Virus record (IMG/VR): IMGVR_UViG_3300010262_000127
DNA length: 5,925 bases
From: a virus
Lineage: Duplodnaviria; Heunggongvirae; Uroviricota; Caudoviricetes
Strand: one strand, 5' to 3'
This document shows positions 19 to 5,925 of the stretch, in pieces (position 1 is the stretch's first letter; every line of letters begins with the position of its first letter). A program made the position numbers and the translations under genes. The notes under the pieces are model-generated. The model searched no databases. It was not told where the DNA came from and saw nothing but the letters and a program-made list of their open reading frames with translations.

Positions 19-255
19 TCACTCACCTGAGTTTCTTTCCAGCCAGCGACGGGCACCATTTTCGGTTTTAAACGTTTTGCTTTTGGTATACGTCATCGCG
101 GTGAACGTGCCGTCCTGGTTGGGAAACACGCAGTACACCAGAGATTCGTTGTTGCCAAGATCGATAGTATCCATGCTGACCTCATTTCCCCTTAACGCCG
201 GGGTAGCGGAACAAAAACCTGCTGCATAGTTATTAAAGTTGAACCCTGCCGTCAT
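19..255 (-). CDS. hypothetical small protein (78 aa), downstream of and co-oriented with the repressor gene
   Basis: Complete ORF on the minus strand, ATG at 253-255 to stop at 19-21. GAGG lies about 9 nt upstream of the ATG. Codon choice (CTG, GGC, CGT, CGC, GAA, AAC, ACC) looks more enterobacterial than the fully overlapping plus-strand ORF 2..229, which uses CGA, CGG, ATA and GTA. No protein family recognised by eye. Confidence 0.45.
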   Translation of the reverse strand: MTAGFNFNNYAAGFCSATPALRGNEVSMDTIDLGNNESLVYCVFPNQDGTFTAMTYTKSKTFKTENGARRWLERNSGE

Positions 256-439: not shown

Positions 440-859
440 CTATGATGCGTTTTGTGCTTTCTTTTTACGGATTTCTTCGTAGATCATATTGTAATACTGT
501 TTTTTCTCTTCAAGAGTTTTTAATAATTTATCCGCTTCACTTTCTGGCAGTTCGTCTAAGAGATCTAAAAAAATACGTTGTCGTGGCGTTAGAACCCTTG
601 TTTCATAACTGGAGGCTGTGTTCGTTGATGATGAAACGATACCATCCATCCATCCCCGGGGTAACCCAAAGGACTCTTCGATAATCTCCACCATATCATC
701 AGCGATCCGTTTTTTTCCCTTTTTCCCCTCTGGGTACAACATTCTTGATACATAAGAAGGCTCGCGCCCGATCTTTCTGGCCACGTTAACCGCTTTACCA
801 TCGCATTTCTCATCACGAATTTTGATGAGTTGCTGTCGTCTAAATTCATATTTGTCCAT
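440..859 (-). CDS. CI-type prophage repressor, HTH N-terminal domain of the Phage_CI_repr type (RacR / phage 186 CI-like), 139 aa, no peptidase domain
   Basis: The translation contains VARKIGREPSYVSRML...KKRIADDMVEIIEESFGLPRGWMDG, which fits the HTH signature of the phage CI repressor family. The C-terminal part (LTPRQRIFLDLLDELPESEADKLLKTLEE) resembles the helical tail of DicA/RacR-type repressors. The gene is divergent from a Cro-like gene across a repeat-containing intergenic region. No SD precedes the ATG (see findings). Confidence 0.85.
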   Translation of the reverse strand: MDKYEFRRQQLIKIRDEKCDGKAVNVARKIGREPSYVSRMLYPEGKKGKKRIADDMVEIIEESFGLPRGWMDGIVSSSTNTASSYETRVLTPRQRIFLDLLDELPESEADKLLKTLEEKKQYYNMIYEEIRKKKAQNAS

Positions 860-1672: not shown

Positions 1673-2635
1673 ATGAGCAGCAAGCTTCATGGTCTTGTCT
1701 GGGAAGGGTGCGCCTTCACCGGCATGATCTTATCCAGGGTGGCGGTTATGGCCCGTCTTGCAGACTACAGCAATGATGAGGGCGTGTCATGGCCTGCCAT
1801 TGAAACTATCCGGCGTCAGATCGGTGCAAGAAGTGAATCCACAGTGAAATCGGCTATTGCAGAACTGGCGAAAGAGGGCTGGCTGACGAAGGAAGAGCGT
1901 AAGGTCGGTGGGCGTAATGTAAGCAATATCTATCGGCTTAATGTGGAAAAACTCGAAGCAGCTGCTGCGGCGGCGCGTGAGTCATATAAACCGAAAAGAA
2001 AAATTAGCCCGGCAAAAAATGACCCGTTAACAGTTGACCCGTCAAATATTGCCCCCTCAACGGTTGACCCGTCAAATTTTGATGGATCAACTGTTGATAA
2101 CAAACTGCCGATTAGGGGGGCGATGATTGACCCCGATCCGTCAGTATTAAAACCTGATCCGTCAGATAAAAGATCTTCTTGTCCGGACGCTTCGCAACCG
2201 GACCCGCAGACGGCTGAACAGAATTTTTTAACCCGACACCCTGACGCGGTTGTGTTCAGTGCGAAAAAACGCCAGTGGGGAAGTCAGGAAGATTTGGTGT
2301 GCGCACAGTGGATCTGGGGACGAATCGTGAGTCTTTACGAGCAGGCGGCCAGCGATGATGGCGAGATCACGAGACCGAAAGAACCCAACTGGACTGCATG
2401 GGCCAATGACGTGCGGACAATGCGGATGCTGGATGGCAGAACTCACAGACAAATTTGTGAAATGTTTGGGCGTCTCCAGCGGGATTCGTTCTGGGTAAAA
2501 AACATCATGAGTCCGGCAAAACTCCGGGAAAAATGGGATGAACTGGTTATCCGCCTGGGGCGTTCGCCCGCGCAGCGTTGCGTGAATCACATTTCTGAAC
2601 CGGACACTGAAATACCGCCGGGATTCAGGGGGTGA
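1673..2635 (+). CDS. phage replication initiation protein (lambda O-like / replisome organizer) with N-terminal winged-helix domain and a repetitive DPS-rich linker
   Basis: Long ORF directly upstream of a DnaC-like gene (7-nt gap). The N-terminus (ARLADYSNDEGVSWPAIETIRRQIGARSESTVKSAIAELAKEGWL) is a typical winged-helix DNA-binding region of phage replication initiators. The start is placed at ATG 1673, preceded by a GGGGG run; the ORF track's alternative is GTG 1658, which has no SD. Tandem DNA repeats in the middle of the gene encode the linker. Confidence 0.8.
   Translation: MSSKLHGLVWEGCAFTGMILSRVAVMARLADYSNDEGVSWPAIETIRRQIGARSESTVKSAIAELAKEGWLTKEERKVGGRNVSNIYRLNVEKLEAAAAAARESYKPKRKISPAKNDPLTVDPSNIAPSTVDPSNFDGSTVDNKLPIRGAMIDPDPSVLKPDPSDKRSSCPDASQPDPQTAEQNFLTRHPDAVVFSAKKRQWGSQEDLVCAQWIWGRIVSLYEQAASDDGEITRPKEPNWTAWANDVRTMRMLDGRTHRQICEMFGRLQRDSFWVKNIMSPAKLREKWDELVIRLGRSPAQRCVNHISEPDTEIPPGFRG
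2027..2165. repeat. iteron-like direct repeat array inside the initiator gene (candidate replication origin)
   Basis: Three tandem 30-bp units start at 2027, 2057 and 2087 (TTAACAGTTGACCCGTCAAAT / TCAACGGTTGACCCGTCAAAT / TCAACTGTTGA...). Each contains the near-palindrome TCAAC-N-GTTGA. Two further copies of GATCCGTCAG lie at 2135-2144 and 2156-2165, 21 bp apart. A-rich sequence follows at 2166-2172. Confidence 0.5.
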
Positions 2636-2641
2636 CGTGTC

Positions 2642-3382
2642 ATGAAAAACATTCCGGCAGTTGGGGTTCTTGAACGTATTCGCAGACTTGCACCACAGGG
2701 GGCGGTTCCACCGTACCGGACGGTGGAGGAGTGGCGGGAATGGCAACTTGCTGAAGGACGAAAACGCAGCGAGGAGATTAACCGCCTGAATCATCAGGTG
2801 TGGGTTGAAAAAATCCTGAACCGTGCGGGCATCCAGCCGCTTCACAGGAAGTGCTCATTCGGGAACTACCGGGTGCAGAACGACGGTCAGCGCCATGCTC
2901 TGAGCCAGGCGAAATCCATTGCCGATGAATTGATGACCGGATGTACAAACTTCGTGTTCAGCGGTAAACCTGGTACCGGTAAAAATCACCTGGCAGCAGC
3001 GATTGGCAATCGGCTGATGGCGAAGGGGAGAAGCGTGATTATCGTCACCGTGTCCGATGTCATGAGCGTGTTGCATGACGGCTACGACAACGGCCAGTCC
3101 GGGGAAAAATTTTTACAGGAGCTTTGTGGAGTTGACCTTCTGGTCCTTGATGAAATTGGCATGCAGCGGGATACGCGCAACGAGCAGGTCACGCTGAACC
3201 AGATAGTCGACCGCAGAACGGCTTCGATGCGTAGTGTCGGAATGCTGACGAACCTGAATCACGCAGCGATGAGCACACTCCTCGGAGATCGGGTGATGGA
3301 CCGTATGACCATGAATGGTGGTCGTTGGGTGAATTTTAACTGGGAGAGCTGGCGGTCAAACGTTGGACGTCAGGGTATGTGA
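2642..3382 (+). CDS. DnaC-like replicative helicase loader (AAA+ ATPase, IstB/DnaC family), 246 aa
   Basis: Walker A GKPGTGKN (2963-2986) and Walker B LLVLDEIG are present. Extended similarity to DnaC is visible by eye (FSGKPGTGKNHLAAAI..., NQIVDRR..., GMLTNLN..., LLGDRVMDRM, FNWESWR). It follows the initiator gene with a 7-nt gap, as in lambdoid O-P-type modules. Confidence 0.9.
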   Translation: MKNIPAVGVLERIRRLAPQGAVPPYRTVEEWREWQLAEGRKRSEEINRLNHQVWVEKILNRAGIQPLHRKCSFGNYRVQNDGQRHALSQAKSIADELMTGCTNFVFSGKPGTGKNHLAAAIGNRLMAKGRSVIIVTVSDVMSVLHDGYDNGQSGEKFLQELCGVDLLVLDEIGMQRDTRNEQVTLNQIVDRRTASMRSVGMLTNLNHAAMSTLLGDRVMDRMTMNGGRWVNFNWESWRSNVGRQGM

Positions 3383-3407: not shown

Positions 3408-3836
3408 ATGGAAACTGTATTGCATGCACTGAAAGCGATGGGAAAAGCCAATTCTGTTGAACTGGCGGCGCGGCTTGATATCAGCCGTGAAGAAGTTCTT
3501 AACGAACTGTGGGAACTCAAAAAAAATGGCGTTGTTGATAAAACGGGTCACACCTGGTTTCTGGCTGTCGAAGGTGAAGCCGGGGTAACCGAAGGGCAGG
3601 CACTACAACCTGAAGCGCCGGATGTGGTAACCGAAGAGGTCGCTCCAAAAGTTACCGCAGACATGATGGTTGAGTTTATCGGTCAGGATGGTGCTAAAAC
3701 GTGTGAGGAACTGGCGGGTAAGTTCGGCGTCAGTACTCGCAAGGTTGCTTCCACGCTGGCGGTGGTAACCGCAACGGGGCGGCTGGCACGCGTTAATCAG
3801 AACGGTAAATTTCGTTACTGCATGTCGGGGGGGTAA
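3408..3836 (+). CDS. winged-helix (DUF1627-like) prophage protein, probably the 5' portion of a gene interrupted by a frameshift
   Basis: SD GAGG about 10 nt before ATG 3408. The translation shows two winged-helix-like segments (ANSVELAARLDISREEVLNELWELKKNGVV and KTCEELAGKFGVSTRKVASTLAVVTATGRL). The ORF ends at TAA 3834-3836, immediately after a G7 run (3827-3833), and the +1 frame stays open from 3769 to 4179. Confidence 0.7.
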   Translation: METVLHALKAMGKANSVELAARLDISREEVLNELWELKKNGVVDKTGHTWFLAVEGEAGVTEGQALQPEAPDVVTEEVAPKVTADMMVEFIGQDGAKTCEELAGKFGVSTRKVASTLAVVTATGRLARVNQNGKFRYCMSGG

Positions 3837-3837
3837 T

Positions 3838-4179
3838 TTACCAGCAGATCCGAAAGCCGCGCCGGTAACGAAAAATGATGGTAAGGCCTTTCCTCAGCCA
3901 GCAGGTGCTGCGTTACCAGTCCGGGAAGCCGCAACACAGGAAGAAATTAAAACAGAAACTGTGGCGGACATTGTGCAGCCGTTGCTATCGTTTACCGAAA
4001 CGCAAGCAGATGAGCTGATTTTTCCGTCCCTGCGCAGGGCAAACCTGGCGCTGCGCAGGGCGAAAAGTGATGTTCAGAAGTGGGAGCGAGTCTGCGCCGC
4101 GCTGCGGGAGCTGAACAAGCACCGGGATATTGTTCGACAGATTACTGATTCTTCCCGCCGTGTTGTATCGGAAAAGTGA
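3838..4179 (+). pseudogene. out-of-frame 3' continuation of the 3408 gene (frameshift at the G7 tract); the only in-frame start for independent translation is GTG 3961, with no SD
   Basis: The frame is open from 3769 to TGA 4177-4179 with no ATG, GTG or TTG before GTG 3961. Removing one G from the 3827-3833 run joins the 3408 frame to this frame, giving a single ORF of about 257 codons. Confidence 0.5.
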
Positions 4180-5480: not shown

Positions 5481-5539
5481 GGGTAAAAACGGTTTGCGGT
5501 AAAGCGAGAGTTAAGTAGAATTGCTGCGGGTGCTTGAGG

Positions 5540-5575
5540 CTGTCTGCCTCGGGCATGCCACCGTAAGGCAGACAG
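5540..5575. repeat. inverted repeat (10-bp stem CTGTCTGCCT / AGGCAGACAG, 16-nt loop containing the palindrome GGCATGCC)
   Basis: Direct reading of complementary arms at 5540-5549 and 5566-5575, with an inner palindrome at 5552-5559. Neither strand has a U-tract after it. Confidence 0.4.
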
Positions 5576-5637
5576 AGAAAAGCCCCAGTTAACATTACGC
5601 GTCCTGCAAGACGCCTAACATTAATCTGAGGCCAATT

Positions 5638-5925
5638 TCATGCTAGACATATGTAGGTTAGCCTCTTACGCGCCGAAAGGCAAGGAGATGTATGGGTCCA
5701 CCACATATTGCAATTTTTATTCTCTTTTAAAATATATTCCACGGGCGTCATTAGTGCGAGCGCCTTGTGGGGTCTTTTGCTGTTATACAGCACCAGATAT
5801 TCCGCCAGCTTCTGGTTAAATAGCGCCAGATCTTCAAAGAGTAAAATCTCATTAAATTCAATAAACTGCTCTCTTAACGTCCGGTTAAAACGTTCACAGA
5901 TAGCGTTCATTTTTGGCGTGTAGGG
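5638..5925 (-). CDS. DDE transposase / integrase catalytic-core (rve-type) protein, C-terminal portion only; the gene continues beyond the window edge
   Basis: The minus-strand frame is open from the window end (..PLHAKMNAICERFNRTLREQ...YLVLYNSKRPHKALALMTPVEYILKE..) to the stop at 5638-5640. The motif ERFNRTL followed by YN..RPH.AL...TP.EY is characteristic of the C-terminus of rve-domain transposases (IS481-like by eye). The M reported at 5910 by the ORF track is an internal residue. Confidence 0.65.
   Translation of the reverse strand, partial: PYTPKMNAICERFNRTLREQFIEFNEILLFEDLALFNQKLAEYLVLYNSKRPHKALALMTPVEYILKENKNCNMWWTHTSPCLSARKRLTYICLA

Follow-up and report, generated by a model that had tools for sequence, protein, structure and literature searches.

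A candidate replication origin within the linker-coding part of the initiator gene of a Rac-like lambdoid prophage

We analyzed a 5,925-nucleotide stretch of viral DNA (IMG/VR record IMGVR_UViG_3300010262_000127), referred to here in its full length as the window. By gene order and Pfam matches, it is the region for immunity and replication in a Rac-like lambdoid Escherichia coli prophage. The middle of its replication initiator gene contains an array of short repeats, and the original prediction, made from the DNA letters alone, had proposed that this array is an origin of replication lying within the coding sequence. The gene and the parts of its product, with positions in amino acids (aa) or nucleotides (nt), are as follows:

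nt 1673-2635, plus strand: replication initiator gene, 320 aa
aa 1-105: winged-helix N-domain; Pfam HTH_36 (PF13730) matches aa 25-71
aa 107-174: linker predicted to be disordered, with an AlphaFold predicted local distance difference test score (pLDDT) below 50
aa 178-297: helical, lambda-O-like C-domain, from AlphaFold and BLASTP
aa 300-320 (nt 2573-2635): short DnaT-like C-tail, from NCBIfam and a sequence search of the Protein Data Bank (PDB)

The repeat array encodes aa 116-165, inside the linker that is predicted to be disordered. In the AlphaFold model, for which a 30-sequence alignment was the input, the N-domain (aa 1-105) had pLDDT values of 73-89 and the C-domain (aa 178-297) values of 75-92. 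The initiator as a whole matched PHROG 391 ("replication initiation O-like"; E 7e-115). BLASTP aligned its aa 153-300 with aa 145-277 of lambda O (34% identity over 148 alignment columns, E 3e-25; tblastn, E 5e-18) and its aa 183-304 with phi80 gp15 (36% identity, E 4e-26), and revealed no N-terminal similarity to either protein. The N termini of lambda O and phi80 gp15 match PF04492 (Phage_rep_O) in Pfam, whereas the N terminus of the initiator matches PF13730 instead, together with a weak match to DnaD_N. A Foldseek comparison related the N-domain, again weakly (E about 4e-3), to winged-helix regulators of the MarR, PadR, and ArsR types, which bind DNA as dimers. Judged by these alignments, the initiator gene is a chimera, in which an HTH_36 N-domain is joined to a C-domain with homologues in lambda O and phi80 gp15.

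Within and immediately to the right of the array, the following elements were recognized:

2019-2030, plus strand: unit 1, ATGACCCGTTAA, with two mismatches to the consensus 12-mer and in 15-bp register with the rest
2034-2045, plus strand: unit 2, TTGACCCGTCAA, a perfect dyad with arms TTGAC/GTCAA
2049-2060, plus strand: unit 3, TTGCCCCCTCAA, imperfect, encoding IAPS
2064-2075, plus strand: unit 4, TTGACCCGTCAA, perfect
2079-2090, minus strand: unit 5, TTGATGGATCAA, an inverted site that reads TTGATCCATCAA on the minus strand and encodes DGS, not DPS
2094-2138: degenerate units TTGATAACAAAC (2094), TTAGGGGGGCGA (2112; relatives have TTAAGGGGTCAA), and TTGACCCCGATC (2127), with very strongly constrained synonymous sites
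2135-2144, plus strand: first copy of GATCCGTCAG, an iteron-like DPS site with a Dam GATC, kept in groups A and B
2156-2165, plus strand: second copy of GATCCGTCAG, 21 bp from the first
2141-2180: candidate unwinding tract, the least stable 40-mer of the gene, at the position of the A/T-rich tracts of lambda and phi80, with GATC at 2156 and 2172
2166-2195: right arm and module junction, ATAAAAGATCTTCTTGTCCGGACGCTTCGC, common to phi80 and lambda origin DNA

Tandem Repeats Finder and a repeat search recovered the array and all of its predicted elements in place, with a signal far above that of shuffled sequences. In the segment 2008-2097, Tandem Repeats Finder detected both a period of 30 (2.5-3.0 copies, 76-80% matches) and a period of 15 (3.7-5 copies). 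The repeat search located units of the type GACCCGTYAA starting at 2021, 2036, 2051, and 2066, i.e., with a spacing of 15 bp, and two copies of CCYGATCCGTCAG at 2132 and 2153, with a spacing of 21 bp; TTAACAGTTGA, TCAACGGTTGA, and TCAACTGTTGA were found at 2027, 2057, and 2087, respectively. Autocorrelation over the whole window gave top 75-nt segments with 51/75 matches at lag 30 (start 1993) and 50/75 at lag 15 (start 2008), compared with 35.6 ± 1.4 (maximum 41) when each of 200 dinucleotide shuffles was scored at its own best lag and position. Furthermore, the four occurrences of GAYCCGTCA in the window all lie inside the array, with 0.10 expected, and every 12-mer with at most two mismatches to TTGACCCGTCAA falls within 2019-2090.

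The array unit is a 12-bp dyad-symmetric site, TTGAC-CC-GTCAA, which is matched by its opposite strand with two mismatches. At 15-bp phasing there are five to six recognizable 12-mers, to which the two GATCCGTCAG copies are added. The basic period is 15 bp, or five codons, and the 30-bp period results from alternating unit types. The three exact-period 30-bp units of the original prediction are present, the third of them degenerating after about 13 bases. The predicted TCAAC-N-GTTGA palindromes are also present but constitute the junctions of neighboring units, and a 12-bp site at 15-bp phasing is a more likely binding unit than one of 30 bp. The predicted extent of 2027-2165 proved slightly too narrow, since the array starts at 2019, includes the degenerate units at 2094, 2112, and 2127, and is followed by constrained DNA to about 2200. 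The two predicted 21-bp-spaced copies correspond to GATCCGTCAG at 2135 and 2156, and the predicted repeat peptide (TVDPSNIAPS/TVDPSNFDGS/TVDNKLPIRG) is found at aa 120-149 of the 1673-2635 open reading frame (ORF).

Unit 3, which reads TTGACCCCTCAA in the Edwardsiella and Erwinia relatives, may represent one weakened site in the allele of the window. The largest protein cluster (3163 members) has IDPS at this unit, as does the commonest E. coli allele, so that the IAPS of the window implies a one-base difference; both alleles are common. As to the geometry of the array, 15 bp amounts to approximately 1.4 helical turns, and adjacent sites therefore face nearly opposite sides of the helix, while the perfect sites, separated by 30 bp, come close to being in helical phase. 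This phasing suggests that the complex may be coat-like and not wrapped as in the O-some of lambda.

To determine what is conserved in this region, we used a set of 80 homologous loci from different Enterobacterales species, 80 near-identical viral contigs, and several phage records. In-frame repeats were present at the same place in all compared homologues. In a set of 81 genes, the linker units of the form [D/E]-x-S had TCA as the serine codon in 436 of 510 cases (85%), compared with 232 of 1464 (16%) in the remainder of these genes. The subfamily of the window comprises seven relatives (from Erwinia, Mixta, Edwardsiella, and Morganella) that are 60-65% identical across the N-domain and linker. 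At conserved residues, the third-position identity to these relatives was 0.85-0.97 over nt 2033 to about 2200, rising to 0.92-0.97 at 2093-2195, compared with 0.30-0.55 in the domain-coding parts. In accordance, the fraction of the commonest codon in 72 distinct genes of other subfamilies was mostly 0.8-1.0 in the linker and about 0.3-0.8 in the N-domain.

The peptide did not show such conservation. Within the subfamily, the units ATTGACCCCTCAAAT (I-D-P-S-N) and GTTGAGGGGTCAACG (V-E-G-S-T) are one and the same 12-mer, TTGACCCCTCAA, in opposite orientations and in phase; in the forward direction TTGACCCCTCAA encodes DPS, and reversed, as TTGAGGGGTCAA, it encodes EGS. In a more distant class of N-domain, with 43% identity, the units are TCTGAACCTTCAAAA with the dyad TGAA-CC-TTCA, compared with TGAC-CC-GTCA in the window; both arms have changed, one of them through the synonymous replacement CCG>CCT. 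The peptide in the units varies among DPS, APS, DGS, EGS, EGL, DPP, DAS, and VPS, while the DNA core is kept. It is thus the DNA of the array, and not the peptide, that is conserved, and this conservation goes far past the requirements of the peptide. The original prediction had named protein repeats retained over fully divergent synonymous DNA as the observation that would speak against it, and the opposite was seen. The region is a natural case of dual coding, with about 170 bp of an ORF that show almost no synonymous change across some 80 species. The near absence of synonymous change would be accounted for by DNA that is read as binding sites and a peptide that is a tolerant disordered linker.

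The array is also associated with the N-domain in evolution. The HTH_36 N-domain and the array occur in fusion with three or more C-domains that are unrelated to one another, and the classified loci comprised 22 of the lambda-O type, 54 of a second type, and 2 of a third type. Many E. coli genomes match the window gene just from query position 496 (nt 2168) onward. One such E. coli gene has an unrelated N-terminal part and five repeat copies containing GGTCAAAATG at a spacing of 23-24 bp; next to these come a purine-rich A/T stretch and, after it, the same ...TCTCGTCCGGAAGCTTCGCAACCGGACCCGCAGACGG as in the window. The initiator of Edwardsiella phage GF-2 shares 28% identity with that of the window, mainly through its lambda-O-like C-domain, and its gene has three copies of a lambda-like palindromic 24-bp unit, AATGATCCCAAAATTGGGATTTTG, at the same place. 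The repeats differ by N-domain class, namely TTGACCC(C/G)TCAA in class A, TCTGACNCRTCAAAA (also given as TCTGACCCGTCAAAA) in class B, TCTGAACCTTCAAAA in class C, and GGTCAAAATG at 23-24 bp in a further class, whereas the PF04492 initiators of lambda and phi80 have palindromic sites of their own at a spacing of 20-24 bp. In the sequences compared, every N-domain class brings its own repeats, and the recombination junction is at the right arm. Repeats that travel with the N-domain are the behavior expected of an initiator-specificity domain and its cognate sites.

The original prediction had suggested a comparison of repeat number among homologues, and this number was found to vary in 15-bp steps. 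E. coli genes that are 85-90% identical encode 320, 315, 310, or 305 residues, which corresponds to a difference of one, two, or three five-residue units, and variants of 308 and 303 aa are without one seven-residue DPS(V/D) unit, i.e., one GATCCGTCAG copy. Across species, the regular array has 3 to 9 units. The close IMG/VR relatives all had an identical match length and are thus uninformative on copy number. Since the unit is exactly five codons long, sites can be gained or lost while the reading frame is kept.

The original prediction had likened this arrangement to that of phage lambda, which was borne out for the C-domain, a real homologue, and for the position of the array, but not for the N-domain, which is PF13730 HTH_36 and not PF04492. 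In lambda, the origin is placed centrally in the initiator gene, flanked by the parts for a DNA-binding N-domain and a loader-recruiting C-domain, and comprises several dyad-symmetric initiator sites with an A/T-rich tract to their right (PMC7466680). The window has the same arrangement of dyad-symmetric sites between two domains, and these are followed by a modestly A/T-rich right arm. The array of the window (aa 116-155) occupies the position of the annotated lambda iterons 1-4 (39034-39118, aa 117-144 of O), the segment 2141-2180 is at the position of the lambda A/T-rich tract, and the right-arm DNA is similar. In contrast, the lambda sites measure 18-19 bp and are spaced by 20-24 bp (20, 24, and 23 bp, which is not frame neutral), whereas those of the window are 12-bp sites at 15-bp phasing in both orientations. 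Furthermore, the A/T tract of the window is much weaker, and the partner gene is DnaC-like rather than lambda P. In phi80, four annotated gp15-binding sites are similarly found in the linker-coding part of gene 15, but they are of the TTCCCGAAAACGGGAA type with a spacing of 20-21 bp, and the annotation of its partner, gp14, notes a similarity to lambda P.

The similarity to both phages extends to the DNA on the right-hand side, where AAAAGATCTTC(T)TGTCCG is common to the origin regions of lambda and phi80 and to the window. The window sequence CAGTATTAAAA...AAAAGATCTTCTTGTCCGGA aligns with CAGTATTAAAAGATCTTCGTCCGAGA of phi80 and AAAAGATTATTCGTCAGAGA of lambda, just to the right of the initiator-binding sites annotated there. 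In phi80, CAGTATTAAAAGATCTTCGTCCG corresponds to CAGTATTAAAA...AAAAGATCTTCTTGTCCG of the window, and the segment 2141-2180 is partly alignable to the A/T-rich tracts of both phages.

Theta plasmids such as pPS10, R6K, F, and P1 likewise have a winged-helix Rep protein that binds phased repeats beside an unwinding element, often with Dam/GATC sites. Their iterons, however, are direct repeats of about 17-22 bp at a phasing of about 22 bp and are found outside the rep gene. Plasmid origins of this type have been reviewed (PMC4980987).

The K-12 Rac prophage with its oriJ was considered as a model. It shares the neighborhood of the window (DUF1391 ydaF-like gene, repressor, ydaS-like and ydaT-like genes, initiator, DnaC-like ydaV, and DUF1627/DUF977), but YdaU is a DUF1376 protein and not of the HTH_36 type. 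The initiator-plus-origin module therefore differs and the oriJ literature is not transferable, so oriJ was rejected as a model.

Taken together, the far-above-chance periodicity, the lambda-homologous position, the selection at the DNA level, and the coinheritance of N-domain and array make it very likely that this Rac-like lambdoid prophage has its replication origin in the segment from 2019 to about 2195, within the linker-coding part of its own initiator gene. The proposal of a candidate origin in the coding sequence is in this way supported by comparison. The origin would be laid out as in phage lambda, with binding sites of a different and undescribed type. Following derepression, rightward transcription would lead to the synthesis of the initiator, whose winged-helix N-domain (aa 1-105), probably as dimers, would fill the array of 12-mers. 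The duplex would then open in the adjoining tract at about 2141-2180, and the lambda-O-like C-domain, possibly with the DnaT-like tail, would recruit host DnaB through the phage DnaC-like loader (2642-3382), which would take the place of lambda P.

Several observations weigh against this assignment. The array of the window has only two perfect units, and the strongest constraint, at 2093-2195, is to the right of the regular array. The stability of 2141-2180 corresponds to only z = 1.9 for the window, in which many intergenic stretches are less stable. The two GATCCGTCAG copies are 18, 21, or 24 bp apart in relatives and have no constant helical phase. The GATC sites at 2085, 2135, 2156, and 2172 are kept in relatives and form the densest cluster of the window (4 in 100 bp), but with P of about 0.08 this cluster is not significant alone; a SeqA/Dam role is a possibility. 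The RNA of 2005-2200 is predicted to fold better than all 200 shuffles in both the sense (z -4.4) and antisense (z -3.2) directions, and group B relatives reach z values of -5.9 and -5.1. Finally, among the papers available we found none that describes an origin or its sites for the HTH_36/O-like initiator family. A full-text search on the origin of this family yielded just work on the lambda-type O protein and its iterons (PMC7466680) and surveys of replication modules without mention of iterons. It covered iterons in connection with prophages and DnaC, non-lambdoid Stx replication regions, and the genome papers of SfIV, SfII, and SfV, and a search for the motif as a text string returned unrelated primer sequences only.

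A further candidate for the unwinding element was the A-rich stretch 1983-2007 on the left flank. It is the least stable 25-mer of the gene, yet its synonymous sites are not conserved, and it was rejected.

Among the alternatives, the one that survives best, although we regard it as improbable, is that the N-domain, or else some other protein of the phage or the host, binds the sites for the purpose of regulation, such as autorepression, transcription attenuation, copy-number "handcuffing," or a partition-like function, and that the origin lies elsewhere. Plasmid iteron arrays also serve control, the A/T-rich tract is weak, and the conserved GATC sites could be SeqA/Dam control sites. However, both in position and in its right-arm DNA the array region is homologous to the origins of lambda and phi80, which are defined by experiment, and the 5.9 kb of prophage examined contain no second repeat array or site cluster.

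Less probable still is selection for a nucleic acid structure, be it an mRNA hairpin that acts on initiator translation or stability, an antisense RNA, a cruciform in the DNA, or the antisense ORF 1930-2103 on the minus strand. Besides the fold energies given above, a 33-nt imperfect inverted repeat centered at 2062 and antisense frames that are often open through the linker are in line with such selection. Forward and reverse units, however, were as complementary between genomes (10.24/12) as within a genome (10.15/12), with no covariation beyond the shared palindromic sites, and the stem partners, loop lengths, and best stems change from genome to genome. Moreover, neither an internal promoter nor a terminator was found in 1600-2700, the array region had no Rfam match to a known RNA family, and all three codon positions are almost completely frozen, which is more than dual coding needs. 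A hairpin or cruciform was therefore rejected as the selected feature in spite of the strongly negative energies, and the fold energy most plausibly follows from the palindromic nature of the arrayed sites. The antisense ORF itself (57 aa, STVDPSKFDGSTVEG) mirrors the repeat peptide because the DNA is palindromic; in homologues, a median of 78/110 codons across the linker are stop-free in antisense frames.

The weakest alternative, a low-complexity and flexible DPS-rich linker that arose by slippage, with a passive DNA periodicity and no role in cis, would agree with the in-frame repeats (15 and 21 bp), the predicted disorder of the encoded segment, and the variation in copy number, but it retains next to no credibility, since the synonymous-site data exclude a repeat at the level of the peptide alone, and the peptide varies over a constant DNA core in which a single word encodes unrelated tripeptides in its two orientations.

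Returning to the assignment of an origin, its distinctive features are the compact five-codon phasing, the sites in both orientations, and the ultra-conserved right arm. It is conceivable, although we propose it only tentatively, that initiators of the HTH_36 type define a new origin architecture in which 12-bp dyad sites at 15-bp phasing, in either orientation, would be coated by the initiator and would vary in number without affecting the reading frame. In such an architecture the ultra-conserved right arm of about 100 bp (2093-2195), partly common to lambda and phi80, would be a shared loading and unwinding module for cassettes of N-domain and iterons that are swapped by recombination. The principle of an origin within an initiator gene has been textbook knowledge since lambda (PMC7466680) and is annotated in phi80, so that the conceptual gain is small. 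The practical gain is a testable origin for a very common and uncharacterized class of enterobacterial prophage replication modules, which covers O157:H7 prophages and has relatives in Shigella serotype-converting phages and in some Stx phages. For annotation, such arrays mark the origins and recombination junctions of mosaic phage replication modules.

The initiator gene was present at a coverage of at least 80% in 1515 of 5426 complete E. coli genomes (about 28%), including O157:H7 strains at 99.9% identity, and the window as a whole is 99.3% identical to one E. coli chromosome. Among the E. coli matches listed, the gene was annotated just as "helix-turn-helix domain-containing protein." Members of the HTH_36/O-like initiator family are found in the Shigella phages SfII and SfIV, in phiP27, in Citrobacter phiNP, in Yersinia YeP1-3, in some Stx phages, and in many Klebsiella and E. 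coli prophages.

The order of genes in the window is that of K-12 Rac (racR-ydaS-ydaT-ydaU-ydaV-ydaW), as seen by synteny. The genes that surround the initiator gene are as follows:

19-255, minus strand: DUF1391 (ydaF-like) gene
440-859, minus strand: repressor gene, part of the immunity/early region 440-1650
960-1241: YdaS/Cro-like gene, immunity/early region
1225-1650: YdaT/CII-like gene, immunity/early region
2642-3382, plus strand: DnaC/IstB-like helicase-loader ATPase (Pfam IstB_IS21, E 7e-19; NCBIfam PRK12377, E 5e-149, and DnaC, E 1e-91; PHROG 50)
3' of the DnaC-like gene: DUF1627, DUF977, and DUF551 genes (Pfam)

The immunity/early region 440-1650 would drive transcription across the origin, and the DnaC/IstB-like ATPase (2642-3382) is presumed to be the partner of the initiator. 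Within the initiator family, the downstream gene differs. In the window it is DnaC-like, in the Erwinia relative L008 it belongs to the lambda-P family (PF06992, Pfam), and in the Mixta, Edwardsiella, and Morganella relatives the gene 3' of the initiator encodes a protein similar to that of L008; the downstream genes are located at 2436-3158 in L008 and at 2445-2933 in the relative L003. In the e14-like phage PhiR49_1, YfdN is followed by a methyltransferase, and a methyltransferase gene is likewise downstream in many loci of other subfamilies. These assignments were made by reading the ORFs individually, one of which was scanned against Pfam; an earlier automatic classification that used only a DnaC-like reference was uninformative. 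The choice of loader thus appears to be uncoupled from the module of N-domain and origin.

The last ~20 residues of the initiator (EPDTEIPPGFRG) match the extreme C terminus of primosomal DnaT (NCBIfam positions 159-179; PDB entries 2ru8, 6aep, and 9zbt), and this tail was the only match in the PDB sequence search with the initiator. It is kept in homologues that have a DnaC-like gene or no loader gene next to the initiator gene and is missing from close relatives in which a lambda-P-family gene is next. The tail may be a peptide that recruits DnaC or DnaB, an echo of the dnaT-dnaC operon of the host.

Toward the right end of the window, a full-length sok antitoxin RNA was detected at 5528-5694 on the plus strand (Rfam, 109 bits, E 5e-25), and a C-terminal transposase fragment at 5638-5910 on the minus strand (Pfam rve_3, E 9e-12) abuts and overlaps it. 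The match to related prophages ends at 5688. By these matches, the segment 5528-5910 looks like a hok/sok locus broken by an insertion sequence. The DUF1627 family match is spread over two ORFs, 3408-3836 and 3961-4179 (profile positions 1-52 and 96-155), which are separated by a gap of 125 bp, and the gene is probably frameshifted or disrupted. On the left side, the repressor gene is flanked by operator-like sites at 357-405 and 878-935. One of the operator-like sites beside this gene is a 37-bp palindrome, TACCCATAGGTATTTAAAAAGTAAATACCTATGGGTA, and the operator-like sequences TACCGCAAGGTA, AACCTGTGGGTA, and TACCTGTGGGTA are located between the repressor and the cro-like gene.

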